A stretch of DNA of 34,265 bases from a virus (taxonomy: Duplodnaviria > Caudoviricetes). Of the stretch, positions 1-31,832 are shown piece after piece. Both the position numbers and the translations under genes were made by a program. The notes below the pieces were generated by a model. It was not told the DNA's origin. It ran no database searches and saw nothing but the letters and a program-made list of their open reading frames with translations. Location of the stretch: positions 1-34,265 of IMG/VR virus record IMGVR_UViG_3300036376_000020; one strand, written 5' to 3'. The stretch's first letter is position 1. Every line of letters begins with the position of its first letter.

Positions 1-285
1 GTGGCCAAGGCTCTCGTTGAAATCCGCTCTCTCGCTCGCAGTCACACCCGCACCGCACTCCGCGTACTCGTCGGCATCATGCGGTGCAAGGATGCAACGC
101 CAGCCGCCCGCGTCTCAGCCGCTAACGCCATCCTCGATCGCGGCTGGGGTAAGGCGACGCAACCGCTGGAGAACGGCGGCGAAGGTCCGCTTGAATTGAT
201 CCATCGGATCGAACGGGTCATTGTTCATCCGGAAGGAGAGGAGATAGGTCGCGAGAAGGACGTCTATCTGCAAAAAATATCCTGA
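1..285 (+). CDS. terS: Putative terminase small subunit
   Basis: Small helical protein with AANAILDRGWGK motif typical of phage terS-like proteins; lies upstream of the large terminase; starts at the window edge. Confidence 0.6.
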   Translation: MAKALVEIRSLARSHTRTALRVLVGIMRCKDATPAARVSAANAILDRGWGKATQPLENGGEGPLELIHRIERVIVHPEGEEIGREKDVYLQKIS

Positions 286-670
286 AATTCTCGGCAAAGA
301 CCTGCGAAGAATGCAGGAGGAGTCAACAGTACAAAGTTCGTCGCATTTCTCCGAGAACAAGGGCTGTCCGATGCCGTAAGAAACACAGATTCACCGTTTA
401 GGCGATTGAAGAGTCGGCAGGGGCGAGGGTCGGTGAGCACGCTCTGGACAACCAGCATACAATGATTGCCTCCACGCGCCGCGGGCAACTTATTCGCTTT
501 CGTCCCCACCGCCCGAAACGTTACTAGGTATCGTCACCAGTCAGCCGAGGCGAGATCTGACTTTTCCCGTACCGTTCTCGAATCTATCGAAGAGCCCATC
601 TGATCGTGATGGACGATGGACAATTTTCTTATCGACTTGCTTCACTTCAGAAGATGATCACTGAACAGGT

Positions 671-1963
671 ATGGGCGTGACTATCCTGAAAATTCCAACC
701 GCAAGAGTATTCGAGCCGCTTCTGGCGCCCTGCAGATACAAAGGGGTCTACGGCGGACGTGGCTCCGGAAAATCGCATTTCTTCGGCGAACTCCTGGTCG
801 AGACTTGTCAGGCCGAGCGCGGCACGCTTGCGGTTTGCATCCGCGAGGCGCAGCGGACGCTGGCGCAATCGTCGAAGCGGCTGATCGAGAGCAAGATCGC
901 CTCACTCGGCGTCGGTCGCGGCTTCAAACTGTTCAACGACAAGATCGAAACGCCCGGAGACGGGCTGATCATCTTCAGGGGGATGCAGGACCACACGGCC
1001 GAGTCGATCAAGAGTCTCGAGGGCTTTCGGATCGCCTGGATCGACGAGGCGCAGACGCTGAGCGCGCGGAGCCTCGCGCTGTTGCGTCCGACCATCCGCG
1101 CGGAAAACTCGGAGCTGTGGGCTTCGTGGAATCCTCGACGCAAATCTGATGCGATTGATGATTTCCTGCGTGCGCGCCAGCCGCCGGGGGCGATCGTGAT
1201 CAGTGCCAACTGGCGCGACAATCCCTGGTTTCCCGCGGTGCTGGAAGAGGAGCGCCGCACCGACCTGTCGCTCTATCCCGACCGCTATGACCACATCTGG
1301 GAAGGCGACTATGTGAGGGCATTCGAGGGCGCTTACTTCTCGCAGATGCTGGCCGAGGCGCGTGCGCAAGGGCGGATCGGAAAGGTTTCGGCCGATCCGC
1401 TGTTGCCGCTGCGGGCCTTCATCGACATCGGCGGCTCCGGCGCCACCGCGGACGCATTTGCGATCTGGGTTGTGCAGTGGGTCGGAGCCGAAATCAGGAT
1501 TTTGGACTATTACGAGGCCGTTGGGCAGGTGCTGGCGTTCCATGTCAACTGGCTGCGGTCGCGCGGCTATTCGCAGGCCATCCTTCATTTGCCGCATGAC
1601 GGCGTCAACGAGAACAACGTCACCGGAAAACGTTACGAGGATCATCTGCGCGACGCCGGCTTCACCGTCGAGCCACCGTTGAAGAACCAGGGCAGGGGGG
1701 CGGCGATGATGCGCATCGAGGCGCTGCGCCGGCTCGGCCCGAAGATCTGGTGGAACGAGGCGACGACCGAAGCCGGCAGGGACGCGGTCGGCTTCTATCA
1801 CGAGCGCAAGGATGACATTCGCAACGTCGGCCTTGGGCCCGAGCATGATTGGTCAAGCCATGCCGCCGACGCGCTGGGATTGATGGCGATCTGCTACGAG
1901 GCGCCGGGGAGGGCGGCGGGTTTCAACCGGACGATACGGTATGAGGAGCGAGGGTGGCGGTGA
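671..1963 (+). CDS. terL: Phage terminase large subunit (PBSX/P22-like)
   Basis: Walker A GGRGSGKS, Walker B IAWIDEAQ, WASWNP coupling motif, C-terminal nuclease with FIDIG and H-A-A-D-A motifs. Confidence 0.95.
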   Translation: MGVTILKIPTARVFEPLLAPCRYKGVYGGRGSGKSHFFGELLVETCQAERGTLAVCIREAQRTLAQSSKRLIESKIASLGVGRGFKLFNDKIETPGDGLIIFRGMQDHTAESIKSLEGFRIAWIDEAQTLSARSLALLRPTIRAENSELWASWNPRRKSDAIDDFLRARQPPGAIVISANWRDNPWFPAVLEEERRTDLSLYPDRYDHIWEGDYVRAFEGAYFSQMLAEARAQGRIGKVSADPLLPLRAFIDIGGSGATADAFAIWVVQWVGAEIRILDYYEAVGQVLAFHVNWLRSRGYSQAILHLPHDGVNENNVTGKRYEDHLRDAGFTVEPPLKNQGRGAAMMRIEALRRLGPKIWWNEATTEAGRDAVGFYHERKDDIRNVGLGPEHDWSSHAADALGLMAICYEAPGRAAGFNRTIRYEERGWR

Positions 1964-1999
1964 GGCCCGGCGCGGCGGCGACAGTGTTGAAAGTTGTCG

Positions 2000-2986
2000 C
2001 TATTTGTTTGCCTTCCTCGCAGCATACGCGCGCTGGGCTTCCTCGGGGCAATAGGCGACCGGTCCGCCATCGTCCCTGAATTTCTTGTCCACGGTCTTCT
2101 GCATGTGGAACGTGTTGTCATCGATCCGGCTCATCCGGACGACGTCCATGCTCAGTGTTCCAGGCTCTCGGCGAGAATTTGCTTCTGCACTTTTCTTTGT
2201 CGTGGCTGGAGCTTGCCTCGTCTCCGGCTGGCTGCAGGTCATGTTCAGGGACATCGCCGCTTGTCCCGTGTTCATCACCTCGATGACCTTGCATTGAGCC
2301 TTGCCGCTGGAGATCGAGCCGTCGGTCAGGCCGATAGCGATGTCGCCGGATTTTGCGCAGCGCTCGCTGAAATCCGGGCCGGTGCTGGCGTAGATGCCGT
2401 CCTTCGGACGCCACTGGTTCGGGCGCGATAGCTGCTCCGGAATCTTGTACTTGGCTTCTTCTATAGCGCGCTTCTTTTCGTCGATGCGCATTTGTTGCAC
2501 ATCCTCAGGGCAATAGTCGGCCTGCCAGCTTGGCCCTTTGAACTGTCCAGCAATCGTTTTTCTAACGGACATCGATTTGTGATTAATCCGGTTGAGTAAC
2601 ATGATCTCCTTGAAAGGCCGTTCGCCGGCATCAGGGTCCCGTGCCGATGTTGGCATGTTGAGATCATAGCAAGTCATATCCAATTTGATGGCTCCGGGAG
2701 CCGTATCCGATATTTTGTCGATCTTGCAGTTCCACTCGAACCCGTGGGCGTGTCGTTCGGCAAGCTCGATCGTAAAGACGCCGTGCTCCTTGCGGCAGTC
2801 AGAATCAAAATCCTTGCCCGGGCTTTCGTAATATCCGTCCGAGGGGCGCCACTTTTCCGTTGGTGACGCCGCGACGTGCTGTGCAAAAGCGGATGTGACC
2901 GCGCCCACCAGCGATGACATGACGAGGGGGAGTCCTATCCAAGTGCGATAGCTCGTTCGTTTCCAATTCAACGATGCTCTCCTCAA
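2000..2986 (-). CDS. Exported protein with two tandem homologous Cys-containing domains; candidate immunity protein for the adjacent M23 peptidase
   Basis: Signal peptide ending AFA|Q; internal duplication KWRPSDGYYESPGKDFDSDC...YCPEDVQ versus QWRPKDGIYASTGPDFSERC...YCPEEAQ; exact start uncertain. Confidence 0.75.
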   Translation of the reverse strand: MRRASLNWKRTSYRTWIGLPLVMSSLVGAVTSAFAQHVAASPTEKWRPSDGYYESPGKDFDSDCRKEHGVFTIELAERHAHGFEWNCKIDKISDTAPGAIKLDMTCYDLNMPTSARDPDAGERPFKEIMLLNRINHKSMSVRKTIAGQFKGPSWQADYCPEDVQQMRIDEKKRAIEEAKYKIPEQLSRPNQWRPKDGIYASTGPDFSERCAKSGDIAIGLTDGSISSGKAQCKVIEVMNTGQAAMSLNMTCSQPETRQAPATTKKSAEANSRREPGTLSMDVVRMSRIDDNTFHMQKTVDKKFRDDGGPVAYCPEEAQRAYAARKANK

Positions 2987-3117
2987 ACTTGGGGTCGAAA
3001 GCCCTTGGGACTCTGCGAGCTATATATCTCGCGCTTAGGTTGATCAATAGGTACAGCAGTGATCTGCGTCCGGCACCGCTTCCACTCCCCCGGACACATA
3101 CAAGGTTAGGATCATCG

Positions 3118-4209
3118 ATGTCTTGGAAAGATATGATGCGACGAGTGTTGCCACCGATCGACGGTGTCGTACCTGACATTACGAGTGGGTTTGGCGAGGT
3201 GGAAGGAAGACCGGAGAATTCAACAAAGCCTCATCGTGGGGTCGACTTTAACTATTGGGGAGTGGCCAAGCTCAATCGGAGTAACCCCGCGATGCGCGCG
3301 CCCGTCACTGGCATTGTGACACGGGCGGACAAGGGTCGGTGGGGCACAATTGCCATTCGAGATGCGGACGGCTTCTCTCACGAGATTCTGCACAGCCATG
3401 CTCAACATGTGACGGTGGGTGATCCGGTCGTCGCGGGGCAGTTGATCGGAACGATGGGCAACACAGGATTGAAAGTCAAAGATCCGAAAGACGCCAACCA
3501 CGTTCACTATCAGTTGAGAGATCCGACAGGCAAGGTTATCGATCCGAGCGCTTATTGGGATCAGCGGGAATCATTCGATCCCAGTCCGGCTCCGCCGGCT
3601 TTCTTAAATGAGCATCAGCGGTATCTGCGCATCTTGGATGCAAATCGTTCGGCAACCGCGAGCCCACCTGCAGTCAGCGAGACCACGCCTCTCCCGCGCG
3701 CCACGCGAGCGGCAGGCAACGCTTCCGCGCCGTTCGGCACGCGCGGGCAATTCGTGCCTGGCTCTGCGACGTCCTCTCAGCCGCTCTACGAAACGCGATC
3801 GTTTGTCGATCCGGCGGAAGACGTCGCAGCACGCAATGCTGGGAAGGAAGTCCGGCGCCTGGTCAGGCTTCCTGCCAGCAAGCCGGACCTCGCCGGATAC
3901 GATCCGAATGCTCCGGCCCCGTTACCGAATGAGATTTCTCCCATCGATCGTTCGACCGCCTTTGACGATCGCTTCGGAAACTGGAGTTCTTCCTCCGGCG
4001 TCAGCGCGCCGATCGCCCCCAATCAGCCGATAGCGTCGTCACCGCCGACAGGGCGTCAGCCTGGCGTCGTACCCGGCGAGCCGATGCCCGACTATCCCTT
4101 TCCACCGACACTGTTCGGATTTCCCGGCAGATCGAAGACGTCAGGCGACGACGATATTTTCTGGGCTCTGGCCCGGTCTGCCCAGTGGAACAAGAAGCCG
4201 CAGCGCTAG
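3118..4209 (+). CDS. M23 family metallopeptidase with long Pro/Ser/Ala-rich C-terminal tail, no signal peptide
   Basis: HRGVD, ILHSH and HVHYQ motifs, GxMGNTG; ATG 3118 preceded by AAGG/TAGGA. Confidence 0.85.
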   Translation: MSWKDMMRRVLPPIDGVVPDITSGFGEVEGRPENSTKPHRGVDFNYWGVAKLNRSNPAMRAPVTGIVTRADKGRWGTIAIRDADGFSHEILHSHAQHVTVGDPVVAGQLIGTMGNTGLKVKDPKDANHVHYQLRDPTGKVIDPSAYWDQRESFDPSPAPPAFLNEHQRYLRILDANRSATASPPAVSETTPLPRATRAAGNASAPFGTRGQFVPGSATSSQPLYETRSFVDPAEDVAARNAGKEVRRLVRLPASKPDLAGYDPNAPAPLPNEISPIDRSTAFDDRFGNWSSSSGVSAPIAPNQPIASSPPTGRQPGVVPGEPMPDYPFPPTLFGFPGRSKTSGDDDIFWALARSAQWNKKPQR

Positions 4210-4278: not shown

Positions 4279-4854
4279 ATGCCCAAAATGTCCACGTCCG
4301 ATCTCAAGGCGATGCTGGCTGCCGAGAAAGCCGATGCACTGGCTGCGATCTCGGCCGCGCGGCTTTCGGAGGAGCGCGCCGATGCGATGGACTATTATCT
4401 CGGCGACATGAGCAAGGACATGCCAGCGCAGGACGGCCGCTCGCGCGCGGTGTCGACCGACGTCGCCGACACCATCGAAGGGTTGATGCCGTCGCTGATG
4501 GATATTTTTGCCGGCTCCGACGAAGTGGTGCGGTTCGAACCCGTCGGTCCGGAGGACGAGGCGGCGGCGCAGCAGGAGACGGATTACGTCAATCACGTGT
4601 TCATGCAGCAGAACCCGGGCTTCATGGTGCTCTATTCCTTCATCAAGGACGCGCTGCTTTCAAAGGTTGGCGTCGTGAAGGTGTGGTGGGAGGAGCGAGA
4701 GGAGGAGAGCCGGGAGACCTACTATGATCTAAGCGAGGACCAGTTTGCGCTGTTGGCGCAGGCGGTGGCCGAGTCGAATGGCACGATGACGATCGTGGCT
4801 CATACGGTTCATGATGCGAACTCACCGGCCTTGACGCCAAAGCAAACGACGTAA
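4279..4854 (+). CDS. Portal protein, N-terminal part (split gene)
   Basis: DYYLG...GRSRAVSTDVADTIEGLMPSLMDIF...ETDYVNHVF...IKDALLSKVGVVKVWW matches P22-like portal N-termini; own stop codon at 4854. Confidence 0.85.
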   Translation: MPKMSTSDLKAMLAAEKADALAAISAARLSEERADAMDYYLGDMSKDMPAQDGRSRAVSTDVADTIEGLMPSLMDIFAGSDEVVRFEPVGPEDEAAAQQETDYVNHVFMQQNPGFMVLYSFIKDALLSKVGVVKVWWEEREEESRETYYDLSEDQFALLAQAVAESNGTMTIVAHTVHDANSPALTPKQTT

Positions 4855-5098: not shown

Positions 5099-5353
5099 AT
5101 GGAGATTGTGCTTCAGATACTGCTCGAAATGGTTGGCTACACGGTAGCACGATTGGCGCTGCCGATATTCTCGTTCGGGAAAGTTCACGTTGCTCCTCTT
5201 GCTGCTCCTGCAGGCAAGTTCAATTTGATTGGTTGTCGTCGTGATGAACGGGGGCGAGTCGAGATCGAATCGACAACCGGGGGCGTCATAGGTGTCCTGA
5301 TTTGCCTGATCGTGGCGTTTGGGCTAGCTCTGCTGATCAGAGGAAGCCTTTGA
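5099..5353 (+). CDS. Small membrane protein (candidate immunity)
   Basis: Two hydrophobic segments; directly upstream of a decayed cargo-type gene. Confidence 0.5.
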   Translation: MEIVLQILLEMVGYTVARLALPIFSFGKVHVAPLAAPAGKFNLIGCRRDERGRVEIESTTGGVIGVLICLIVAFGLALLIRGSL

Positions 5354-5467: not shown

Positions 5468-6150
5468 ATGGAGAGGATCGATGTAGAATTTTTAGCGCGC
5501 GAAGCGGCAAAGAGGATCGGCGGTACGATCGTCGCCAATAAGATCGCCGGCGCTGACGAGCCAAATGGACCAGAGGTCTACGCGGATCGGATAAAGCGAG
5601 ACTTTACCTCAATGATTATGCAGACGCGTGGGCCCTCTATGACTCGGACCGTCCTCATTGGGAGAACTACCACCGTTTGCCACCAAGAGGCCCGGTGAAG
5701 AAAGAGTTCGTCCGGGACCCCGCGGCCGCGGCCGGCGTTCCAAGCCGAAACAACGTCTTCGAGTATGGGTACCCAGATTCCAGTCAGGTTCCGACTCCGA
5801 TCGGCGAATCGCAGCCGGTATGAAGGCTAAGTGCTTGGCGGGATCGTCCTGACGGAGCGGCTCGGAGGGCCTTGGCTGAGACGATGGGGGGACCGGAAGG
5901 AATTGGCGCCTTGGATGTGTGGCGGCCGACCGCTTCACCGCAGACAAATTCCAGCTTAGCGAACCGCGGCGGGCTACTCTCGCCCGCCTTTGACATGGTG
6001 TCGTCTGCCGCTCGCCCTCTCGAGTGGCAACGAGCGCCGCGAGGATTGCCCGCCATGCTGGACGAGATCGGCGGCTTCGATCTGTCGAATTCGGCGCCGC
6101 CCCGTGGTGGGCTGTTCAGCCTGTTCCAGGATTATTTTCGCAATCGCTGA
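5468..6150 (+). pseudogene. Disrupted cargo/effector-type gene, tail paralogous to 6789..7550
   Basis: Frameshift near 5603-5610 and in-frame TGA at 5821; restored frame reads FVRDPAAAAGVPSRNNVFEYGYPD...QPV*RLS...PRGLPAML...GGLFSLFQDYFRNR. Confidence 0.7.
5707..5778 (+). repeat. 72-nt coding repeat, copy 1 (FVRDxAAxAGVPSRNNVFEYGxPD)
   Basis: Near-identical peptide at 7236..7307 with mostly synonymous differences. Confidence 0.85.
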
Positions 6151-6290: not shown

Positions 6291-6725
6291 TTATGAATTG
6301 GAATACGAAATCCAGGTGATCAGGACCATGCCGACGATAGCCCATGCGAGCGCGATCAATTGATGACGCGACGCCTTCTTGAGATGATTGCGGCCGGCTT
6401 CGTTCAAACGGGCAGGGTCGATATTGACAAGGCTGTAAGATTTTGTCGGATCGAATTTGAATAACCGAGCGAGCAGGAGCATGGCGGCCAAGTATATGAT
6501 TTCCAGATAGGATGGAAACAACAGCAAGGTGCCGGCGGCCATCAACAGTTTTCGCTCTGGGCGGGACGGTGGGCTTTCCGATAGGGGAGGCCCGGGCGCT
6601 AGGTTGTTCAGTACCACGCGGATATCGTTCAGATGCTGTCCAGAAAAAAACAGCAAGCCGCACACCCAAATGACAATCAGAGCGGCAAGGAAGTAGGTCA
6701 CGTGACGGCCAGTCCTTAACAGCAT
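6291..6725 (-). CDS. Multi-pass membrane protein (candidate immunity)
   Basis: About three hydrophobic helices; divergent from 6789..7550. Confidence 0.7.
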   Translation of the reverse strand: MLLRTGRHVTYFLAALIVIWVCGLLFFSGQHLNDIRVVLNNLAPGPPLSESPPSRPERKLLMAAGTLLLFPSYLEIIYLAAMLLLARLFKFDPTKSYSLVNIDPARLNEAGRNHLKKASRHQLIALAWAIVGMVLITWISYSNS

Positions 6726-6788: not shown

Positions 6789-7550
6789 ATGGCACGAGAA
6801 CGCGAGGCGCGTTGGCCGGACGGCTGGTCTGCGTCCATACCACTGCCATTCCTTGGAGGCAGAGTTGGTGGAACCTATTTTTCAAATCCCGGGGCGCCAA
6901 CTGCCCCGCGCCTTACCCTGACACGCAGTTGGGGATTGCCGGGGGCAGGGCTAAACGCCGTCTTTTTGAGAGAGGGAATGACCTCGAACGATACACTTGG
7001 CCCTGGCTTCAGCGGTAACGTTTCGACTTTCCTGCCGTCGGTAAGTCTGAATGGGACGATGCTGAACAACGATATTTTTCGACCGTGGAAGACAAGGGTG
7101 ACAAGCGTAGAAGCCGGAATAGGAACGCCCAATGCGTCGCCGGCCTTTACCACAACTTACACACCGCAGCAGATCGCGGATTTCCTGACCAAATATTTCT
7201 TTTCACCGGCGAGCGGTCCTGAAGGCAAGCGCGCTTTTGTGCGCGATTCTGCCGCGGTCGCCGGCGTTCCCAGCCGCAACAACGTGTTCGAGTACGGTTT
7301 TCCTGACGCCGGTTCGGCATCGTCTGCAACGGGTCGAGCGAACGGACAGAAGCGCGAAGAAGCGATCTTCGACAATGGCGCATCTCTTGTGCCATTTGCA
7401 GTCTCGCCGGAGAGTATACCGCGCGGTCTGCCGGGCTTGCTGTTCGACAACGCGCTGGTCGATCCGTTGGGATCAGGTGCCGCGCCGGCTGGCGGGTTGG
7501 CCGGTCTCATTCAGGACTATCTGCGGCGAAACGCGTCACCCGACCGCTGA
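6789..7550 (+). CDS. Cargo/effector-type protein: Gly-rich beta-like N-domain plus conserved tail
   Basis: GGAG RBS before ATG 6789; tail motifs GVPSRNNVFEYG, FDNGASLVPF, PRGLPGLL, GGLAGLIQDYLRRN. Confidence 0.75.
   Translation: MAREREARWPDGWSASIPLPFLGGRVGGTYFSNPGAPTAPRLTLTRSWGLPGAGLNAVFLREGMTSNDTLGPGFSGNVSTFLPSVSLNGTMLNNDIFRPWKTRVTSVEAGIGTPNASPAFTTTYTPQQIADFLTKYFFSPASGPEGKRAFVRDSAAVAGVPSRNNVFEYGFPDAGSASSATGRANGQKREEAIFDNGASLVPFAVSPESIPRGLPGLLFDNALVDPLGSGAAPAGGLAGLIQDYLRRNASPDR
7236..7307 (+). repeat. 72-nt coding repeat, copy 2
   Basis: Matches 5707..5778. Confidence 0.85.
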
Positions 7551-7775: not shown

Positions 7776-8615
7776 ATGATTGCGGTTGCTAAATATTTGA
7801 GCGGAGCGTTGCGATGTTTCGTCCTGCTGATGTCAGGACTCATATGCGTCGCCGACGTTCGCGCCGATCAAGATCTCGATGCGGCGAGGTATCACCGCGC
7901 GGTCGAATACTGTCGTGGCGATGTTGTGCGGCCAATGATGCTGAGTCCGGACGGGAATATTCTCTGCATGGACGGCGTGATCATGGCGTTGCAGACGGAT
8001 CCCAGGTATATCGAGGCCCTGCCAGAAGGCGGTCTTTTCGTGGTGCGAAGTGCCGAGGGTGATGGGGCGATGGCGCTCGCATTCTCGAAACTGCTGCTGC
8101 AGCGTCGAGCGACGGTGATCATCTACGACTATTGCTTGTCGGCCTGTGCGACCTTCTTCTTTTTTGCATCAGAGCGGACATACGTCATGAAAGGCGCGCT
8201 GGTTGCGTGGCAGATCAGCCGCACCGGTTTCCCTGGCTGCCCGCTTTACAGAGCTTTGACGCGGCGCGATTTCTGGACAGTGACACGCGAGTTCTGCGAC
8301 CCACTTCCTCTTGGATTTCGAGATCGTTACGCTCAATATTACTCGGAGATGGAACAGTTTTATCTGGAAAGATCGAACAGTCCGGAATCCAAAGTTCCGC
8401 CCGCCAGCCCGCACATTTCGAGATATATCGGCAATATGGTCAAAGAGACCGGAGAGTTTCCGGACGTGTTATGGACCTTGAATCCCGCAAATCTGAACCA
8501 TTTCAAGACGAAGATTGAGTACGAGGCCTATCCGGCCAGTCAGGATGAGTTGGATGAAATCGTAGCCCGGCTGCAACTACCGCGGCTGCGCAAAAGGGTG
8601 ATCTACGATCCGTAG
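7776..8615 (+). CDS. Exported ClpP/crotonase-like fold protein, paralog 1
   Basis: Signal peptide; VVRSAEG, YDYCLSACA and VAWQ motifs; ends YEAYPASQDELD...RVIYDP like 26425..27228. Confidence 0.75.
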   Translation: MIAVAKYLSGALRCFVLLMSGLICVADVRADQDLDAARYHRAVEYCRGDVVRPMMLSPDGNILCMDGVIMALQTDPRYIEALPEGGLFVVRSAEGDGAMALAFSKLLLQRRATVIIYDYCLSACATFFFFASERTYVMKGALVAWQISRTGFPGCPLYRALTRRDFWTVTREFCDPLPLGFRDRYAQYYSEMEQFYLERSNSPESKVPPASPHISRYIGNMVKETGEFPDVLWTLNPANLNHFKTKIEYEAYPASQDELDEIVARLQLPRLRKRVIYDP

Positions 8616-9143: not shown

Positions 9144-9494
9144 TTGACAAATCCATTTTCTGATCCTGCACACGTGCGGGCAAAGACCAAAAAGGATGCT
9201 TTGCCGGATTGGAGGCAATTTATCCCGCCGGCGTCGACTGATCGGGGTCCATACGCTCCGGTATCAATCTTGCCGGCTCTGATGCCGTTTCCAATATATC
9301 CTGCGCAGCCGGTGCCCCACGTCGACAGCTTTACAAAGCAGGGTGGACCTTCCGCTGAGCCATTTCCGCGCTTTTCGGATTTCCTGAACAGAGACGGCAG
9401 TCTCAAACCCTTCGATGCGAACGTGCCACCAGCCGGTGGTCTGCTCGGCATCATCGAGCAATATCTGCGCAACAATGGTCAACGCGGGTTCTAG
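9144..9494 (+). CDS. Small Pro-rich cargo-type protein with conserved C-terminal motif
   Basis: Strong RBS AGGAGG before TTG 9144; ends GGLLGIIEQYLRNNGQRGF. Confidence 0.65.
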   Translation: MTNPFSDPAHVRAKTKKDALPDWRQFIPPASTDRGPYAPVSILPALMPFPIYPAQPVPHVDSFTKQGGPSAEPFPRFSDFLNRDGSLKPFDANVPPAGGLLGIIEQYLRNNGQRGF

Positions 9495-18859: not shown

Positions 18860-18860
18860 C

Positions 18861-20101: not shown

Positions 20102-20103
20102 CC

Positions 20104-20715
20104 ATGTCGCTGCTTGGCTTTGACGCATCCGGGCGCCTTGCGCTCGGGCAACTTTACCGCATTGTTGCTTCCAACACCGTTCTGACCGCCGCTCCAGGTA
20201 CATACGCGGTTGCGGGACAGATCGCCGCTTTCAAGGCGGCACAAGTCGGCAGCGTAGCCGGATTTGTGATGGCGGGCAACGCGGCGATCCTTCGAACCGC
20301 GCTCGCTGCCTCGCCGGGCGCTTTCCTGGTGGCCGGCGTGGCGGCGACATTTCCGGTGCGGCTCCTGGCCGACCCTCGTAGCCATTCCGTTGCCGCCAAC
20401 GCTGCTACGATTGCAGCAAAAATGCTGTCATCCGCCGCGAGCTTCTCAATCTCGGGCCAGAGCGTTCGGTTCGGACCATCGATCGGTTTAAGTGCAGGGT
20501 CTTATGCCGTCGCCGGATCTGACGCGAGCTACACACGCGACTTCGAGGCCTGGTTTCCCCGTCCGTTCGATACCGATGACTGGACGAGCGAAACGAGTGA
20601 AAGCGAGGCCTGGGTGCCGAGTACACCGGTGACGGAAACATGGTCAACGCAGACGACGCGACCCCCGTCATGGGCGCTGGCAGCCAAGCAATCCGAGAAC
20701 TGGACAACCGAATAA
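20104..20715 (+). CDS. Ala-rich virion protein with Trp-spaced C-terminal repeats
   Basis: MSLLGFDA start; W every ~10 aa at the C-terminus. Confidence 0.65.
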   Translation: MSLLGFDASGRLALGQLYRIVASNTVLTAAPGTYAVAGQIAAFKAAQVGSVAGFVMAGNAAILRTALAASPGAFLVAGVAATFPVRLLADPRSHSVAANAATIAAKMLSSAASFSISGQSVRFGPSIGLSAGSYAVAGSDASYTRDFEAWFPRPFDTDDWTSETSESEAWVPSTPVTETWSTQTTRPPSWALAAKQSENWTTE

Positions 20716-22190: not shown

Positions 22191-22501
22191 CGGCCTATGT
22201 GCCCGGGATCACCGAGACCGACCTGAAGAAGATCGTGCTCGCCCTGCAGAACCTGGCGGCCGGACGCTCGAACGCGGTGGGCAGCGTATCGCTGGCGACG
22301 GGGTCCGCGACGACAACGGTAACGACAGCGAATTGCTCGCAGGGATCGACGCCGATCCTGACGCCGGCTTCGGCCAGCGCGGCGGCCGAGGTGGGCAGTG
22401 GCACGTTGTATGTGAGCGCGGTGACGAATGGATCGTTCACGATCACGCATGCAAACTCGGCGACGACGGGGCGAACGTTTCTGTACGCGCTCTTAGGCTA
22501 G
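22187..22501 (+). CDS. Small virion protein
   Basis: GTGA coupling to the hub gene; GSFTITHAN C-terminus. Confidence 0.65.
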   Translation: MTAYVPGITETDLKKIVLALQNLAAGRSNAVGSVSLATGSATTTVTTANCSQGSTPILTPASASAAAEVGSGTLYVSAVTNGSFTITHANSATTGRTFLYALLG

Positions 22502-22673: not shown

Positions 22674-23003
22674 ATGGCGACACCGCACCCCGAAACCGTG
22701 ATTACAATGCTGAGCTCGATTCTGAGGAGCATGGAGAATGCCGTGAACGGCTCTATTGCCGCAACAGGTGTTCCCCCTTCAACGGAAGAAGAAGCGTTCA
22801 GTTTCACCAGGCACGTGATCGTGGAATAGCTGGCGCGTTTGATGCTGCGTCAACTTTCGGTCCTGGAGCGTTACGATTCGGAAGAACTGCTCTCGATGCT
22901 GCGGGCCGGGCCGTCCCTCGAGCACTCGAACGTGACGCCCCGCGCTATTTTTACGGTCCCGGCACCGCTAATATACCTGGCCCCACAGTTCCGCCGTCGC
23001 TAA
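22674..23003 (+). pseudogene. Possible small gene interrupted by TAG at 22827
   Basis: GGAG RBS before ATG 22674; protein-like frame continues past the stop (VIVE*LARLMLRQLSVLERYDSEELLSML). Confidence 0.35.
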
Positions 23004-23029
23004 ATCGCTTCCGAGCGGATTCCGGCGGA

Positions 23030-23706
23030 TTGCCGTCATCTAGCGGTTCGGTACCTGGCGTTCCTCCGCCGGCCATCGGCAGCACTCCCTATCGAGGCAT
23101 GCCTGCGCCCCTGCGAGAACTTGATGCGATGGAGCGGCAGGCTCACGGCGTCAGGCCTAGATTGTCATCGCCGGTGGAAGATCCAAACTTCAGGCAGCTT
23201 TCACGGTTGCCTGTGTTGCCGGCCTTGGAAGCGACTGGCTCGGCTGCTACCCACTCTCTGGACATTCCTGACTTCCTGCTACGCATTCCTAAACCGCAAA
23301 TCTCAGACTCGGAGAGCACTGAGCCGTCGGATTTAACGCCCGACACGTCGAGCGGTGGTAGCCGGGATACAACTGGTGGCGGAGGAGGGAGAAGCGGTGG
23401 GGGCAACAAAGGCGGAGGCGGGGATGGTGGAGGCAGTAACAGTTCTGGACGTAGTCACAAGGATATGTGTGATGATGAACTGGCAGAAGAGATGCGTAGT
23501 TGCAAACCTATAAAGGGAGGTCCGCCAATCGGGACTACTATAATGGATGTGTGGAGCGGGCAAAAGGCAGATGGATCCAATGCTACAAAAATGGAGAACC
23601 GAACCCGAGTGGTCCAGGTCGATGGCGACCGGGTACTGATGAACAGCCCGGTGACGAAGAAACGTGGATTAACTACCGGCGAATGCCTGGCTCCAAGCGC
23701 AAGTGA
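23030..23706 (+). pseudogene. Frameshifted effector-type gene: Pro-rich region, Gly linker, 4-Cys C-terminal domain
   Basis: DPNFRQLSR motif; apparent 1-nt loss near 23507 joins MCDDELAEEMRSCK to YKGRSANRDYYNGCVERAKGRWIQC...DEETWINYRR. Confidence 0.55.
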
Positions 23707-23862
23707 GCGTCACCAAATCTAGAACTGTGGGCAAGATGGCGCGATCCTTTCTGGGCTTTTCGCAACAGCAACGAGCGTTTTCTATTCTACGTCCTAATTG
23801 ACATCGTTTCCCATTCTGCGCCATCCTTTGGATACTCTGCGGCGGAATGCGAGGTAGTCACC

Positions 23863-24474
23863 ATTAAGTCGCGTGATTCGATTTACGAACTGTATGACTG
23901 GGTCGAGCATCTGAGGCGGACCCTCACGATTGATGCTGCCATCCGTACGATTTCGGACAGTTTGGAGAAGGTGGACGAGGAGGATCATTACGTACTCGCT
24001 CTGCAACTAACCCAGCTTTTGCGCGAAGCTGAACGATATACTGAAGCCGTCCAGATGTTGGATCAGATGATGGAGCGATACCCGGATGACGTCCGTTCGC
24101 CGATGAGCAAGGCGACAACTTATATCTATTGCTTCGAAGATTATGAAAAAGCGCTCGAATGCATCAATTCGGCGCTTCAGCGGGCACGTCGCACTGGCTT
24201 TTTCCGAAGGGAAGCTCTCGGCAACAAGGCGCGAATACTACTGAAACTCCGTCGAGGCGATGAACTCTCCGATGTTCTTGAAGAGATCATGTCGCTGCAG
24301 ATCGTGAAAGGAATCCCCGACATCGGGCGTGAACGAGATTTTGTCGACCGCGCGCCGCCAGGTCTCATCCGCAAGAATGTGCTGGATCGCTACAACGAAT
24401 TTCGGCCAAAGCGCGCGGGGGACACGTCAAACGATGAGCCACCGAGATTTGAGCCTCCCGACGACGCGGCGTGA
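23863..24474 (+). CDS. TPR-like helical repeat protein (candidate immunity)
   Basis: YTEAVQMLDQMMERYPDD, YEKALECINSAL, ALGNKARILLKL; frame open upstream to ATT 23863 behind a GAGGT RBS (first standard start is TTG 23962). Confidence 0.7.
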   Translation: MKSRDSIYELYDWVEHLRRTLTIDAAIRTISDSLEKVDEEDHYVLALQLTQLLREAERYTEAVQMLDQMMERYPDDVRSPMSKATTYIYCFEDYEKALECINSALQRARRTGFFRREALGNKARILLKLRRGDELSDVLEEIMSLQIVKGIPDIGRERDFVDRAPPGLIRKNVLDRYNEFRPKRAGDTSNDEPPRFEPPDDAA

Positions 24475-24518
24475 CAGCCGACGATAAGGGTTCTAGACGC
24501 AGAGCCTCGTTATTCGCA

Positions 24519-25063: not shown

Positions 25064-25480
25064 ATGGCGCCTGCGGCTCAGCTTGTTTGCGTCGACCCGA
25101 GACGGGTCGGCGAGGTTTGGCCACATGTTAGGTCATTGCTGAAGGCCGCCTGCCGCCGCACCGGGCTCAACGCTTTCTCGGAGGTCGAGGCCGATATTCT
25201 TGCCGCCCGCAGCTTGCTGTGGGTGGCGTGGGGCGGGCGGGCGATCGAGTCCGCAGCGGCGACCATTCTGATCAACTCCGGGTTCGGCAAGGTTTGCATC
25301 ATCACAGTATGCGGCGGGCGCGACATGACGCGCTGGCTTCCCCTGCTCGGACAGATCGAAGATTACGCGCGGCGTGAGGGCTGCGCGCGAATGCGCATCT
25401 ATGGCCGCAAGGGTTGGCTGCGTGTGCTCAATGGATACGAGCAGAAACACGTCATCATGGATAAGAAATTGGGTGGATGA
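25064..25480 (+). CDS. GNAT-fold-like phage protein of the tail/ejection region
   Basis: LLWVAW, CIITVCGG, IEDYARREGC, GRKGWLR pattern; position between hub and ejection genes. Confidence 0.7.
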   Translation: MAPAAQLVCVDPRRVGEVWPHVRSLLKAACRRTGLNAFSEVEADILAARSLLWVAWGGRAIESAAATILINSGFGKVCIITVCGGRDMTRWLPLLGQIEDYARREGCARMRIYGRKGWLRVLNGYEQKHVIMDKKLGG

Positions 25481-25791: not shown

Positions 25792-26226
25792 ATGAATTTT
25801 TCACCAATCCAGTGGGTGATGCTTATCGGAATGGATCTCTTCGTACGGTCCGCATACGCCTTTGCCGTCAGCTTCAATATCTTTTTGATTCCGATTGTTC
25901 TCAAGTTGTCAGCGCTTCACATTTTTATTCTCGGGCTGGTGTCTGGCTTCGCAACGCCATTGGCGGTGCCACTACGACGCGTCGTCACGGTTATCGTTAC
26001 AAGCGTGCTGTTTGCCATCGCAATGGCGGGTCTCTGGATTACCGCAGAGCAGAGTTCGCATTCCACTTCTTGCTTCAACAATGTCTGCGACTGGATCAAC
26101 GGAACGATTACGCCAAGCGGCGTATGGCTGGTTTTCAAGGAGACCAGCATTCAAGTTTTGGCAAATCTGAGCGTGACAGCGACCACTCTTTTCCTGGGTC
26201 GGGGGATCCGTGCGGCGGCATCATGA
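25792..26226 (+). CDS. Multi-pass membrane protein (candidate orphan immunity)
   Basis: About four hydrophobic helices with a CxxxxC loop. Confidence 0.6.
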   Translation: MNFSPIQWVMLIGMDLFVRSAYAFAVSFNIFLIPIVLKLSALHIFILGLVSGFATPLAVPLRRVVTVIVTSVLFAIAMAGLWITAEQSSHSTSCFNNVCDWINGTITPSGVWLVFKETSIQVLANLSVTATTLFLGRGIRAAAS

Positions 26227-26424: not shown

Positions 26425-27228
26425 ATGCGATATCTTGTGGCCATATGCCTTGTGTCGTGGGCTGGATTGGGCACGGCGCCGTCCCTGGCCGAGGTGTCGG
26501 AGGCGGAGAGGGGGATTTACACTCGCGCCGTCGAATTTTGCCGAGGTAGTGTCAAGCGTCCGATGGCGCTCGACCTCGACCAACGCGTGCTGTGTTTCGA
26601 CGGCGAGATTGTTCCTGATCTTGACATATCGCTCATTGACCGCCTTCAAGATAGCGGGCTCGCCGTGGTGCGAAGCGTCGGCGGTAACCTGCTATCTGCA
26701 ATTCGCCTCGCGGAGGCATTACTGGAGCGGAATGCGACGGTCGTGGTCTACGACTACTGTCTATCGGCCTGCGCCAGTTTTCTGCTTGTCGCTTCGATGA
26801 AAGCGTTCGTGGTGAAGAATACGCTTGTCGCGTGGCATTCCCCTGTTGCTCCTTACCTTTGCCCGTTGTTGCGGCAAGCAATGGACGGAGGACCAAGGCG
26901 TCTCGACAAGGATGTTTGTGCCCATGCGCCGGCCGGATTCCGCAGCTCGTACGAGCACTATAAAGAGTTGCACAGACGGTTTTACGGGCTAAGAGCGATC
27001 GACCGTACGTTCGAAGCCCCTCCGCAGAGCATTATTGTGAGAAGGATCCTGCAGAATAAGTTTGGAGGGATCGGAGACTATCCGGCGAACCTGATGTGGA
27101 CCTGGAATCCGCGATACCATGCGGGTCAGATCAAAACCCAGATTTATTATGAGGCCTATCCGCAGAGCCAGGACGAAGTAGATGCGTTGGCAATGCGACT
27201 GCGGGCTCGCGTGATTTATGATCCGTAG
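26425..27228 (+). CDS. Exported ClpP/crotonase-like fold protein, paralog 2
   Basis: Signal peptide; VVRSVGG, YDYCLSACA, VAWHSP; ends YEAYPQSQDEVD...RVIYDP. Confidence 0.75.
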   Translation: MRYLVAICLVSWAGLGTAPSLAEVSEAERGIYTRAVEFCRGSVKRPMALDLDQRVLCFDGEIVPDLDISLIDRLQDSGLAVVRSVGGNLLSAIRLAEALLERNATVVVYDYCLSACASFLLVASMKAFVVKNTLVAWHSPVAPYLCPLLRQAMDGGPRRLDKDVCAHAPAGFRSSYEHYKELHRRFYGLRAIDRTFEAPPQSIIVRRILQNKFGGIGDYPANLMWTWNPRYHAGQIKTQIYYEAYPQSQDEVDALAMRLRARVIYDP

Positions 27229-27365: not shown

Positions 27366-27857
27366 ATGGCGCGTGATTTTCGCGACTCTTTGCCTTGGTC
27401 AGGCAGCCTGGAGTGGCTGAGCCCGGCAATAGTACCCGGCCTCGGGAGCAACTCAGAACCTCGACTCCCCACCTGGATTCAACCGGAGCAGCCGCCCATG
27501 CGGCCTGATTTCAAGTTATGGGATCCGCTCATTCGTGGAGTGCCGGAGGCCGACCAATCGCCGCCGTTTTGGATCCGCAATCTACGGCCTCTGCCCGATC
27601 CTGGTCCGAATCCGTTTCCGAATCCGGCACCTTTGCCGCAACCAAGGCTCCTGGTGCCTGAAGCAGATCCTCCCGGGGATAACTCGGATTTGGTTGAAAG
27701 CTCGGATCCGGCTCGCGGTTTGCTCGGCCTGCTCGAAGAAGCGATCCGGGGCGAAGCTCGGGCCGGTGTCCGCTCCCAGCGGCGTCCGCGACTGGCATCG
27801 ACGCAGACAATCTCGATGCATTCTGCGCAGCCCGTACGTCGGTTGGTGCGAATGTAG
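27366..27857 (+). CDS. Pro-rich cargo-type protein with conserved tail motifs
   Basis: GGAG RBS; RGLLGLLEEAIR and QPVRRLVR motifs. Confidence 0.65.
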   Translation: MARDFRDSLPWSGSLEWLSPAIVPGLGSNSEPRLPTWIQPEQPPMRPDFKLWDPLIRGVPEADQSPPFWIRNLRPLPDPGPNPFPNPAPLPQPRLLVPEADPPGDNSDLVESSDPARGLLGLLEEAIRGEARAGVRSQRRPRLASTQTISMHSAQPVRRLVRM

Positions 27858-28032: not shown

Positions 28033-29157
28033 ATGGGCGGACAATCGTCCTCGACACAGACCCAGCAGTCGCAAACCGCGCCGTGGGCTGCCGCGCAGCC
28101 GCTGCTGCAGGGTATCCTTGCGCAACTCAACACGGGCCTGAACAACACCGGCCTGACGGCCGCGGAGACCGGCGCGATCGATACCTTGGAAAGTAATGCG
28201 GCGAAGGGCAACCCTTACGCCGGTCAGATTGGCGACTATGCGCGGTCGCTGTTGAGCGGTGGGGGCGCCGAAGCACAGGCCGGCAATCTGCGAGATAATC
28301 TGGACGCATTCAGGAGCCAGCTCGCACCCTATGCCAATGGGAGCATGGTCGGCAGCAATCCGGCGCTCGCGGCGCAGCTCGCGCAGATCCGGGACGATGT
28401 CGCCAATTCCGTGAACGGCCAGTTTGCCGCCGCCGGCCGCGATCTCAGCGGCGCCAATCTGATGGCCTACGGGCGCGGCGTCGCCGCAGGGCAAGCGCCG
28501 GTGATCGCCGCGCAATACAATCAGGATGTCGCCAACCAGCTCGCTGCCGCCAACGCGGTCTACAATGCCGGCAACACGACGGCCGGCGCGTTGTCCGGGT
28601 TGCGGCAGAACTATCTAGCCAATCAGGGACAGGGTGTAAGCGCGGCGCAATCGGCACTCGATGCGCAGAACTACGGCGCCAACGCCACACTGGCCGCCGA
28701 AGCGCAGCGTCGCGGCATTCCCGTCCAGGCGCTTGGACTGCTGGCCCAGATCGGTGTTCCAATCGCCGGACTTGGCAATCAAACCAGCGGAACCAGCACC
28801 AAGACCGAGCAGATGTCCGGCGCACAGCAGTTTGCCACCATTGCCGGCGGCATCAACAACCTGCTTGGAACGTCGACGTTCGGACAAGGCGGTGCAAAGG
28901 GGGGAAGCGGCCTGATGGGACTGATGAATTGGTCTGACCGTCAACTAAAGGAAGATATTGCGCCGGTCGGAACGCTGTTCGACGGTACGCCGGTCTACGG
29001 TTATCGCTACAAGGGCGCGCCGGCCTATCACATCGGGCTGATGGCCCAGGACGTAGAGAAGACTGCGCCTCACGCGGTGATTGAGATCAATGGCTACAAG
29101 GCGGTGGATTATCGCGCCGCTACCGAAGCCTCTCGAAGAATGCACGAGCTTGGCTGA
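28033..29157 (+). CDS. Ejection/pilot (DNA transfer) protein with C-terminal peptidase S74 intramolecular chaperone domain
   Basis: MGGQSSSTQTQQS start, Ala/Gln/Gly/Asn-rich helical body, WSDRQLKEDI...YGYRYK...GLMAQDVE...VDY. Confidence 0.8.
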   Translation: MGGQSSSTQTQQSQTAPWAAAQPLLQGILAQLNTGLNNTGLTAAETGAIDTLESNAAKGNPYAGQIGDYARSLLSGGGAEAQAGNLRDNLDAFRSQLAPYANGSMVGSNPALAAQLAQIRDDVANSVNGQFAAAGRDLSGANLMAYGRGVAAGQAPVIAAQYNQDVANQLAAANAVYNAGNTTAGALSGLRQNYLANQGQGVSAAQSALDAQNYGANATLAAEAQRRGIPVQALGLLAQIGVPIAGLGNQTSGTSTKTEQMSGAQQFATIAGGINNLLGTSTFGQGGAKGGSGLMGLMNWSDRQLKEDIAPVGTLFDGTPVYGYRYKGAPAYHIGLMAQDVEKTAPHAVIEINGYKAVDYRAATEASRRMHELG

Positions 29158-29266: not shown

Positions 29267-30478
29267 ATGACAATCAACCCCGATTCTGCGCTGACCGGCG
29301 CCGCCTACGATCTCGCAAATGCCGGCTATCTGCCGATGCCGGATCCTCAAGCCGAGGAAGATCGCGAGACGATCGACAGTGGGGCCGCTTCATTGCGCGA
29401 GGCGGCTGCGCAACGCGCTGAACCGCCTGACGAGACGGTCGTTCGCGGATATACCGGCCCGGACGGTGAACCGGCACCGGCGAATGAAGCAGTTACGCTG
29501 GCGAGGGCCAGCCGCGACTATGCCGATGCGACGGCGCTGGAGAAGCTTGCCGCCGAAGCGGAATCCTCGAAATCGCTGGCAGCGCGGGTAGACGCGATGC
29601 GCGCGGAGGCCCTTGCCAATGATCCGGCCGTCGCCGAGCTTTACGGCTTCGAGCCTCCGCACGATCGAGCCGATGAGAACGCGCCTGGCGAGGAAGAATC
29701 AGGAGAGGGGACAAACAAGGGGCCTGACGCGGGAGCCGACCCGGCGTCTTCCCTCGATCCTGAGCTTCAAAAGGCGCTGCAGCACCCGCAAGTGCGGCAC
29801 GCAATCGAAGAGCAATTCGGGGAGGTCGAAAAGGTCCGACAAACCTATATGGAAGGACTAGCTGCGGCGACGCAGATTGCGCAGGTGAGCTTTCTCAGCC
29901 AGTTCCCTGAACTCGCAAGCGTTGCTCGGCAGGATCTGCCGGGTGCTCTCGAGCGGCTTTCGGTGGACGATCCCGCGAAGTTCGAGCGCGTCAAGACGAT
30001 GATAGAAGCGACCGAGCATCTGTTTGCCCAGCAGCGCGTGGAGAACATCCGGCAAGCTCAGGTAAGCCGGCAGAATTTCGAGAATTACGCGCGGTCCGAA
30101 GACGCCCGGTTTGAAACCATGATGAAGGGAGAGTCCAGGGAAACGCAGGCGGCCGTTGGCGCCGAGATCCTGGCGTCTGCCAAGGCAAGCGGCGTCGAAC
30201 CTGCCGAGCTGGGCCGGCTGCTTCATAGCGAGCCGCTGATGAGAAACGCGGTCTTTCAGCGAATGATGTATGACGCCGGAAAATATCGGTTGATGATGAA
30301 AGCCAGGGATGTTGCTGCGGCAAAGCAGTTGCCGCCGGTGGTTCGGCCTGGCGTTGCCCGCTCGCAGGCGGAACGGCAGCACGCGGACCTGCGAACGCTC
30401 AGCGCCAAACTTTCGAGCTCGGGCGATATCAAGGATGCGGTGGCGCTCTATCACGCGCGGAAATCGGGTCGGCGTTAG
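29267..30478 (+). CDS. Putative capsid scaffolding-like protein (displaced)
   Basis: Acidic disordered N-half, helical middle, C-terminal LPPVVRPG...LSSSGDIKDAVAL resembling podovirus scaffold ends. Confidence 0.6.
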   Translation: MTINPDSALTGAAYDLANAGYLPMPDPQAEEDRETIDSGAASLREAAAQRAEPPDETVVRGYTGPDGEPAPANEAVTLARASRDYADATALEKLAAEAESSKSLAARVDAMRAEALANDPAVAELYGFEPPHDRADENAPGEEESGEGTNKGPDAGADPASSLDPELQKALQHPQVRHAIEEQFGEVEKVRQTYMEGLAAATQIAQVSFLSQFPELASVARQDLPGALERLSVDDPAKFERVKTMIEATEHLFAQQRVENIRQAQVSRQNFENYARSEDARFETMMKGESRETQAAVGAEILASAKASGVEPAELGRLLHSEPLMRNAVFQRMMYDAGKYRLMMKARDVAAAKQLPPVVRPGVARSQAERQHADLRTLSAKLSSSGDIKDAVALYHARKSGRR

Positions 30479-30593
30479 GCAAGCGCATCTGCACAGATTC
30501 TCCCAAAAGTATACGAGACAATTGGGAGAAACAGACGAGAGATATTCTGACTAGCCGGATAATATCGGAGTACCAAAACTGAAGAAAAGCCGG

Positions 30594-31006
30594 ATGAGAA
30601 AGATATTTCGTGCAAGGAATTTCGTTCTTTCTTGTTGCTATCGCTGATTCTCTGGTGCGTCGAATTTGCCTTTCGCACGAACAACTTCTGCCCGGTTGAA
30701 GATCACTCGATTCAGTCTGAACCGGATGCCATCGATGTCGCCAAGAAGAAGGTCGTCAAAGACAGGTTCTTCAGCTCTGATTCTTTTGGCAGCGCGCACG
30801 AGTTTGTAGAGTCACTTGTTGAAATCGAGAATTGCTGTAGCGCCACGCGAGCCCGAAACGGCTTTGGCGTTATCGTGTGGAGCGTCTATCTCACCGCAAA
30901 GGCGACAGACAAATACAATCGCCGTACGATATTTGTCGAGATGTCGAACTGCGGTCAGATTTCTCACGATTCGTCATACAAGGATGTAGCGGATCGAAAG
31001 GAATGA
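30594..31006 (+). pseudogene. Membrane-anchored/exported Cys-containing protein with apparent N-terminal frameshift (candidate immunity)
   Basis: ATG 30594 MRKIFRARNFVL joins LLLSLILWCVEF if one T is restored near 30628; ORF 30632..31006 otherwise open. Confidence 0.5.
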
Positions 31007-31007
31007 G

Positions 31008-31681
31008 ATGGCACAAATGAGGTCAGGTTGAGAAATGGGCAGCACTGGTCGGCCCGGGACTTTGTTGATCATTACAAGAAGCCGACAGGCGTCGGGCACG
31101 CCGACACCGGTCGCCGGACCGCCTGAGCCAGTCGATGTGGATATGTCGTGGTACATGGGAGAAGGACCAGGGAAATATTATCATCCCGGTATGTTTCCCA
31201 TTATGCACCAGATCATCGACAACCGGTCCATGGCGCCCGGTGTTTACGAGCTGGAAAAGCTCGCGTCCGATGCGAATAGCCTAAAAAGCAAAATGTCTCA
31301 CTATGGTCTCGACGTGCTGTCCGCTGACTACTCGCTGCGCGCGCTCGTATTTGGGCCCCGCAGTTGAGTGCCGCTCGCACCTCCAGGACTATTGCCGAGC
31401 TTTACCGCTGCTCCGCCTGCCGCGGTCAAAGAACATCTTATGTATCTGGATCAAACGGCGGCCGGCCAGGCGCAGGCCCCTGGAGCAACCTAGTGCCGCC
31501 GCTCGGTGGCCCCGCACATTCACACCCGCCGCCAAGCGACTTAGCTGGCTGGATAGCTTCGATGGCTGGTGTCGATCCCGCCAATCCGACGCTGCCTCAA
31601 CAAGGGGCGCTTGGGGCATCGAGCGGCAACCCCACACCGCAAAGACTATTGCCGCCGTGGGTCTTTTTAGGTCCGAAATAG
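31008..31681 (+). pseudogene. Decayed cargo/effector-type gene
   Basis: In-frame TGA at 31029; globular fragment ends at DYSLRALVFG; tail relic WIASMAGVDPANP...GNPTPQRLLPPWVF in another frame. Confidence 0.5.
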
Positions 31682-31832
31682 GCGCCTCCGCCGCATCCTC
31701 CGCGGTTGAGTGCTTCTCAAAATAATTTGCAGAACAGCAGTTGTCCGGTAAGCCTCCGGTAGAGGCCGCCTTCCCGGATCGGGTTCGAGCGTGAGATGGT
31801 TTGCTCATTAATTTGCAAACAAATGAGCAAAC

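Follow-up and report, generated by a model that had tools for sequence, protein, structure and literature searches.

We describe a 34,265-nucleotide stretch of viral DNA (Caudoviricetes; IMG/VR record IMGVR_UViG_3300036376_000020), referred to here as the window, in which a complete podovirus head-tail operon is interspersed with six inserts carrying putative toxin cassettes. The operon was compared with orthologous loci in Bradyrhizobium genomes and with a related free phage, and we consider it probable that it encodes a podovirus particle with a head, domesticated by the host and kept at one Bradyrhizobium site, from which tagged toxins are ejected into competing bacteria. A preliminary description of the window had offered either a weaponized phage or a domesticated particle, a choice that the comparisons narrow to the latter.

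A podovirus operon at a fixed site in Bradyrhizobium

The 19 core open reading frames (ORFs) of the window lie on the plus strand and are all open, as judged from the ORF list, translations and family scans. They encode terminases, a two-gene portal, capsid, adaptor, fiber, tail hub, ejection protein and scaffold and are followed by an IS66 element (Table 1). Pfam assigned SU10_portal, SU10_MCP and SU10_adaptor, and the closest solved portals were 7sxk and 9nwm, which identifies the core, by family, as a SU10/Bruynoghevirus-type podovirus morphogenesis module. The near-complete head-tail set recognized in the preliminary description was borne out but its P22 type was not; we take the likeness to P22 to be one of gene order only. 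An alternative genetic code was considered and rejected, since the core genes are open under table 11.

A terminase search of the species-genome collection gave 467 matches, and the best 80, which were examined, came mostly from Bradyrhizobium and had host genes as upstream neighbors. Nineteen orthologous regions of 40 to 80 kb each were compared, five of them chosen first and 14 from capsid-positive genomes, with five other capsid-positive genomes lying outside the sample. Most window core genes were 70 to 92% identical to their orthologues. The flank markers were present in 18/19 fetched regions on the right and 14/19 on the left, and integrase, recombination and replication markers were found in none of the 19. 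The preliminary description had proposed comparing such loci across genomes, and the outcome was in its favor, with the core conserved at a fixed site and the cassettes varying at the same junctions. The flanks of the window itself are not visible, so its chromosomal site is taken from orthology; its DNA was also found on longer contigs of 47.8 kb and 81.5 kb. In the three regions reaching far enough, a phage-derived repressor gene (HTH and S24 domains), a GcrA-like gene and a Q-like gene were located 13 to 20 kb upstream with host genes between, and a fourth region began within this cluster.

The median ratio of nonsynonymous to synonymous substitution rates (dN/dS) was 0.08 to 0.22 for 15 core genes versus 0.07 to 0.09 for three neighboring host genes, and the ATPase and nuclease motifs of the terminase were retained in 19/19 orthologues. 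For 13 taxa, the core tree and the tree of the flanking host genes had 8 of 10 splits in common (Mantel p 0.001). The locus has a fixed site, descends vertically and is under purifying selection, as in a gene transfer agent.

The best cultured match was Bradyrhizobium phage ppBeUSDA76-2 (OP596614), the capsid of which was 70% identical and which is described in PMC10127595 as a spontaneously produced podophage. It carries an integrase and replication genes, has compact junctions and encodes three ejection-type genes. Its portal is encoded as two overlapping ORFs, and because the free phage already has this split, we regard the split as ancestral and as having become a cassette slot later; for the same reason, pseudogenization of the portal was rejected. 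The inserts do interrupt the gene set, as the preliminary description had it, but insertion did not cause the portal split. The locus lacks the two large ejection genes that the free phage has: neither was matched in the orthologous regions, and in some complete loci there is no space for them. Genome-wide searches of five genomes for the two proteins, run without a positive control, were empty. One genome (G330) was observed to hold both a fixed-site terminase copy (C1:214962) and, at C34:347001-407000, a related compact prophage in which every ejection gene is present; this prophage might donate new cassettes or act as a helper.

Cassette turnover and terminal tags

The six insertions reported in the preliminary description were all confirmed at the coordinates given there (1964-4278, 4855-9548, 11512-15672, 22502-25063, 25481-28032 and 30479-31747) and total 17,553 nucleotides, with a GC content of 56.3% compared with 62.1% in the core. 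They contain eight gene pairs and two singletons instead of the approximately nine pairs counted before. Inserts of more than 500 nucleotides were present between the large terminase and portal genes in 18/19 loci, within the portal in 17/19 and ahead of the capsid gene in 18/19, versus 0/18 at each of two control junctions. No relative covered more than 27% of any single window insert, and fragments of the terS, terL, portal and needle genes were repeated at cassette ends. The cassettes turn over, and they do so at fixed junctions.

Two cassette polarities were distinguished. In the first, the cargo begins with an N-terminal tag of the motif M.D(F/Y)SLVPV(D/E)HQPDF and the immunity gene comes after it; all 59 distinct matches were behind the portal, and the motif heads 1229 database proteins. 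The N-tagged proteins or fragments matched WHH, Tox-ART-HYD1, NucA, deaminase, DUF4329, DUF4951 or DUF6883 in 15 of 29 cases, the genes that follow matched a family in 12 of 24, and SUKH followed five of the six WHH genes with a scanned neighbor. In the second polarity, which is that of the window, the cargo comprises a variable N-terminal domain, a disordered Pro-rich linker and a short tag a median of 4 to 5 residues from the C terminus, with an exported or membrane partner encoded upstream. Among the domains of this C-tailed cargo were M23, Ntox44 and a transglycosylase, the last with an Ivy inhibitor gene ahead of it, and most of the 29 scanned representatives had no Pfam match. Judged by sequence, the cassettes are polymorphic toxin modules in which a conserved delivery part is combined with interchangeable toxin domains, and the recognized toxin-immunity pairs of the relatives (WHH with SUKH, muramidase with Ivy) agree with the polymorphic toxin pairing proposed in the preliminary description. 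Its statement that no MuF, Rhs, VgrG or PAAR domain is recognizable also held, no such carrier being matched in the family scans.

The shared tail of that description proved to be several slot-biased tag families in place of a single common one. Tails of the form GGLxG..DYLR were in the portal seam in 94 of 124 cases. Every distinct match to the four tag profiles was on the operon strand (124/124, 66/66, 34/34 and 59/59), which argues that the tails are not chance. Across 251 Bradyrhizobium genomes, 46 of 49 portal-seam cargo matches were inside the locus and three were on an unplaced contig, upholding the linkage of cassettes to structural genes.

Several observations tie the cargo to the particle. 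The portal has two tip alleles, an ancestral one and an alternative one ending DG(H/R)HY..PGK..LV. An N-tagged gene followed the alternative tip in 32 of 33 distinct cases and the ancestral tip in 3 of 67, the three exceptions being portals that end early, and the allele differed within two sister pairs. In P22-type phages the portal barrel is reported to point into the head and to associate with ejection proteins (bioRxiv 2025.06.11.659172). The tag on cargo near the ejection gene had its best held-out matches (9,462 ORFs) in three phage-type loci, at the N terminus of their second ejection protein (E values of 1e-5, 0.0015 and 0.012), and one further cassette gene also matched. One of these three proteins is annotated in PHROG as "released from the phage upon host infection." A cargo muramidase was 53% identical over 122 amino acids to a muramidase with a Pro-rich tail that an intact prophage encodes after its ejection genes and that is not accompanied by Ivy. 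SU10 is described as releasing five ejection proteins, one of them a transglycosylase (PMC9509320). Signal-less wall hydrolases must pass the outer membrane to act, and ejection offers such a route. Cultured phages yielded nothing significant for the N-terminal tag (best E value of 8), and the held-out phage-type loci yielded nothing convincing for the profiles of the portal tip and of that tag. A complex prediction for the alternative portal tip with the N-terminal tag scored 0.26 against a mark of 0.32, which counts neither for nor against their association.

Proposed mechanism and competing explanations

From these sequence features we infer that particles are produced and loaded and that they eject their cargo and kill. 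In the mechanism that we propose, the upstream cluster of phage-derived repressor, GcrA-like and Q-like genes would turn on the operon under stress. Signal-less effectors would enter the procapsid via short tags borrowed from ejection proteins, with one class of tags binding the portal tip within the head, and the terminase would still pack DNA into the head, where the DNA may serve as a piston. Non-replicating headed particles would then be set free by lysis. The cargo would be released into the envelope of the target cell, where M23 and muramidase domains would cut the wall and Vap-like or glycine-rich domains would damage the membrane, and nuclease-type cargo would reach the cytoplasm through its own hydrophobic segment. 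Exported or membrane partners would protect against the envelope toxins, and cytoplasmic SUKH and TPR partners against the cytoplasmic toxins. New cassettes may come by recombination anchored on the tag together with a piece of the adjoining core gene. We also lean, if only slightly, toward the view that this is a new class of weapon, a podovirus headed protein syringe, in which the host deleted the DNA-channel ejection proteins but kept their terminal peptides to mark cargo for loading. Each docking site, the portal tip being one, would have its own tag, and a single particle would thereby deliver a mixture of toxins against wall, membrane and nucleic acid.

A number of findings weigh against the domesticated toxin-delivering particle. 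Counting full genes only (at ≥85% for the capsid and ≥82% for the terminase), the capsid gene was found in only 21 of the 251 Bradyrhizobium genomes and the terminase in 41, and approximately 67 (hand count) keep merely a 5′ terminase fragment. In the window, four of nine cargo genes are broken (Table 1), no partner gene matched a known immunity family in family scans, no gene of the tag-headed nuclease class is present, the portal tip is the ancestral one, and IS66 occupies the place where relatives have two small genes, a collar fiber and lysis-position genes. Among the relatives, one-third of the tag-bearing ORFs are short and the pairing is loose in some families, with 34 of 52 M23 domains adjoining a window-type partner. 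The low between-species dN/dS partly reflects past selection, and the portal-tip counts are not phylogenetically independent. The large channel proteins are missing, which leaves the envelope route of the cytoplasmic toxins unexplained; 11 of 25 of these have a clearly hydrophobic segment.

Few full copies and many 5′ terminase fragments indicate that the locus was ancestral or widespread in the genus and was deleted in most lineages. It could be read as an ancient, slowly decaying prophage with a dead particle, the junctions of which are a depot for cassettes that serve the cell otherwise or a bank of immunity genes. Most species keeping any trace have deletion scars, three of the five genomes first examined are without large parts, and the broken cargo and IS66 of the window point the same way. 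We nevertheless regard this explanation as unlikely, given that the core is open in nearly all complete loci, that its dN/dS is near host values with the terminase motifs kept in 19/19, and that slot-specific tags, one of them covarying with the portal tip, are not expected of a passive depot. In several cases the 5′ terminase fragment runs straight into the 3′ end of a holin-like gene (for example, G536:C1:5559782-5560802, G399:C129:28156-29176 and G386:C23:72379-72849), with scar end points that cluster near terminase residues 110, 157 and 277 in many species. In another genome (G002:C1:6108035-6108922) a deletion fuses the capsid gene to a lysis-end gene.

Lysis-position genes also close the locus in relatives, and bacteriocins have been noted near tail cassettes (PMC5576092), so the toxins might instead be soluble bacteriocins released by the lysis genes of the element, like the S-type bacteriocins beside tailocin clusters, with the capsid having a separate role. 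This appears improbable in that no receptor-binding or translocation family was found in any cargo scanned, the conserved parts are short tags only, one of them from an ejection protein, and the genes lie inside the morphogenesis operon and do not flank it. The fixed site, vertical descent, lack of replication genes and intact, conserved terminase would equally suit a gene transfer agent or transducing particle in which toxin-immunity pairs are accessory and select kin or recipients, and the related phage is predicted to be a headful packager (PMC10127595). The chance of this seems slim: the locus does not contain the two large ejection genes that come after the first one in the free phage and in an intact prophage, there being no room for them in some complete loci, and the DNA channel of SU10 is described as being formed by ejection proteins (PMC9509320). 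It is very improbable that the slots are anti-phage hotspots, with tags that sense or enter related incoming phage particles and exported partners that exclude superinfection: the genus does contain related intact prophages, in one case (G330) within a genome that also has the locus terminase, and prophage accessory hotspots often hold defense genes, but muramidase with Ivy and WHH with SUKH are interbacterial toxin-immunity pairs, and the N-terminal tag tracks the portal allele of the element itself.

The domesticated toxin-delivering particle was then set beside known systems. The idea of capsid-borne toxins is anticipated, because they were proposed for MuF systems (PMC3482391, PMC5576092). 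As in MuF capsid-packaging secretion as outlined there, toxin-immunity genes are located in a phage head module and loading of the capsid via the portal is predicted. Unlike MuF systems, the locus has no MuF domain (none in the 44 window ORFs or in 105 proteins from relatives), is of podovirus rather than mostly siphovirus type, is fixed and vertically inherited rather than a mobile prophage, and has at least six slots, cargo with a short tag at one or the other terminus, and envelope-acting as well as cytoplasmic toxins. With ppBeUSDA76-2 and the SU10/Bruynoghevirus podoviruses it shares the morphogenesis genes, the two-gene portal, the first ejection protein and a Pro-tailed virion muramidase. 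In contrast to the locus, ppBeUSDA76-2 has integrase and replication genes, compact junctions, two more large ejection proteins, no cassettes, and the scaffold gene before the capsid gene, whereas in the locus the scaffold gene has been relocated downstream of the first ejection gene. The Xanthomonas X-Tfe/X-Tfi proteins, as presented in PMC6536674, resemble the C-tailed cassettes in their variable N-terminal toxin (M23, muramidase), conserved C-terminal loading signal, upstream immunity gene and signal-only remnants. The locus differs from that system in having no type IV secretion system gene or XVIPCD match, and the machine linked to it is a capsid with a short tail.

Tailocins, extracellular contractile injection systems (eCIS) and PBSX-type defective phages are domesticated by the host, are controlled by a cI-like repressor and an activator, are released by lysis and are used against competitors. 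All derive from long-tailed phages, and tailocins and eCIS are headless. The locus, unlike these, keeps the head, portal and terminase and has no sheath, tube or baseplate: sheath, tube, baseplate and spike annotations were found in 0/44 window ORFs, and the adaptor and tail hub are of podovirus type. A tailocin is a headless long tail, and here capsid, portal, scaffold and terminase are present and conserved. Gene transfer agents have a fixed locus under purifying selection and keep the head and terminase without replication genes; the locus differs from them in carrying polymorphic toxin cassettes and in being without the large DNA-channel ejection genes. Having the defining features of neither MuF systems, tailocins, eCIS nor mobile prophages, and showing those features of polymorphic toxin systems that could be checked, the locus fits no described family. 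A search of open-access full text found no description of the locus or of the toxin system. To our knowledge, the known domesticated phage weapons (tailocins, eCIS and type VI secretion systems) derive from long or contractile tails, and none comes from a podovirus head and ejection route.

If the proposal is correct, a toxin-delivery class would be added to the main legume-nodulating genus, in which competition between strains decides the success of inoculants. How podovirus ejection proteins are selected for loading would also become testable, with the short tags and the portal-tip allele as direct candidates. The cassettes would be a supply of many uncharacterized antibacterial domains, among them an exported protein of the ClpP fold, possibly conferring immunity by proteolysis.

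Features of the window and of related elements

The cargo set of the window consists of two intact signal-less M23 endopeptidases, one protein with a predicted VapA-fold domain, two short Pro-rich ORFs and four broken genes, and the partners are exported or membrane proteins plus one TPR protein, two of them being exported ClpP-fold proteins (Table 1). Signal peptides and export were judged from the N-terminal sequence, and invariant cysteines make a periplasmic location of the partners fitting. The slot A partner is a candidate immunity protein to the adjoining M23 endopeptidase. The GGLxG..DYLR tail was found on three ORFs, a second tail on one and a third on one; there was one weak match, and two ORFs were without a tail. 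The DNA from 4200 to 12500 was identical in the 47.8-kb contig, an independent assembly from the sequencing run that is the possible source of the window, so the breaks in that part are not peculiar to this record.

Table 1. Positions of core genes and cassette genes in the window
Feature	Position	Strand	Basis or remark
Small terminase subunit	1..285	+	Weak PHROG terS match; orthologous in relatives
Large terminase, ATPase and nuclease motifs	671..1963	+	Pfam Terminase_3
Slot A partner, exported, two DUF3617-like repeats, eight invariant cysteines	2000..2986	-	
Slot A cargo, signal-less M23 peptidoglycan endopeptidase, HxxxD and HxH intact, Pro-rich linker, C-terminal tag	3118..4209	+	
Portal, N-terminal gene	4279..4854	+	SU10_portal; split present in free phage too
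Slot B partner 1, small membrane protein	5099..5353	+	
Slot B cargo 1, tail-bearing, broken by frameshift and stop	5468..6150	+	
Slot B partner 2, membrane protein	6291..6701	-	
Slot B cargo 2, residues 1-136 predicted to form a VapA-like beta-barrel, then a disordered linker and a GGLxG..DYLR helix at the C terminus	6789..7550	+	
Slot B partner 3, exported ClpP-fold protein, Gln at His position	7776..8615	+	
Slot B cargo 3, short Pro-rich ORF, GGLxG..YLR tail, start uncertain	9174..9494	+	
Portal, C-terminal gene, ancestral helical tip	9549..11219	+	Family scan, closest solved portals
Conserved 99-aa protein	11212..11511	+	Present in free phage as well
Slot C remnant, 5′ half of M23 gene (broken)	11795..12076	+	
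Slot C partner, exported 471-aa protein, no family match	12108..13523	+	
Slot C cargo, signal-less M23 endopeptidase, motifs intact, long Pro-rich tail	13520..15208	+	
Major capsid protein	15673..16638	+	SU10_MCP
Three small conserved virion-region proteins	16758..17763	+	Comparison with relatives
Head-tail adaptor	17760..18413	+	SU10_adaptor
Fiber module: 143-aa protein, tail fiber, XkdW-like protein, 203-aa protein	18428..20715	+	
Tail hub/nozzle	20715..22190	+	PHROG virion protein; structure match 9nwi
Conserved 104-aa protein, tail-needle position	22187..22501	+	Orthologous in relatives; needle name presumed from gene order
Slot D cargo, Gly-rich linker, Cys-containing C-terminal domain, broken by frameshift near 23500	about 22913..23706	+	
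Slot D partner, TPR protein	23857..24474	+	
Conserved 138-aa protein preceding ejection gene	25064..25480	+	
Slot E singleton, membrane protein, no homologue in loci compared	25792..26226	+	
Slot E partner, exported ClpP-fold protease-like protein, Ser and His motifs	26425..27228	+	
Slot E cargo, Pro/Trp-rich 163-aa ORF, no folded-domain match	27366..27857	+	
First ejection protein with S74 chaperone domain	28033..29157	+	PHROG "DNA ejection protein"
Scaffolding protein, displaced from phage position ahead of capsid gene	29267..30478	+	
Slot F partner, N-terminal hydrophobic segment	30620..31006	+	
Slot F cargo, tail-bearing, split across two frames (broken)	31035..31681	+	

The N-terminal domain of slot B cargo 2 is predicted from its model to have the VapA fold, with a predicted local distance difference test (pLDDT) score of approximately 90 over residues 11 to 80 and a structural match of Z 8.8 (root mean square deviation of 2.7, 97 aligned) but a Foldseek E value of only 0.2. 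VapA damages membranes. Homologues of slot B partner 2 adjoined a Vap-like cargo in 22 of 37 cases, and the four homologues of the slot D cargo domain all adjoined a TPR protein. The ClpP-like family had no PDB match by sequence, and its fold was assigned from a model (pLDDT of 88, Foldseek E value of 1e-5). In the window (7776-9494 and 26425-27857) and among 37 to 38 homologous matches, a short Pro/Trp-rich ORF with no folded domain comes after most of the exported ClpP-fold proteins, possibly a peptide toxin with the protease as its immunity.

The slots extend beyond the six of the window, since one clade has cassettes upstream of the small terminase (L107:1806-3391 and L112:5128-6675), including DUF4261 and Imm11 genes. 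The 385-nucleotide gap between the terminase genes of the window (286-670) holds no convincing gene and is a cargo slot in 12/19 relatives. In eight loci the terminase-portal slot is filled by a Tle1-like phospholipase gene on the opposite strand (L101:13657-14832). The S74 domain of the first ejection protein is present in the window and in some relatives, while others stop approximately 90 residues sooner. The IS66 element of the window (tnpA, tnpB and tnpC) is at 31833-34265. The gene after the collar fiber in relatives had no family match, and its label of lysin reflects position only. At the family level, any capsid match was found in 15 of 301 sampled genomes. A more distant family genome (G214, L240:14767 to L241:10864) carries a similar element that may represent an older or a parallel branch: its cassettes follow the ejection gene, fragments of that gene are repeated, and its M23-like cargo ends in a different shared tail.

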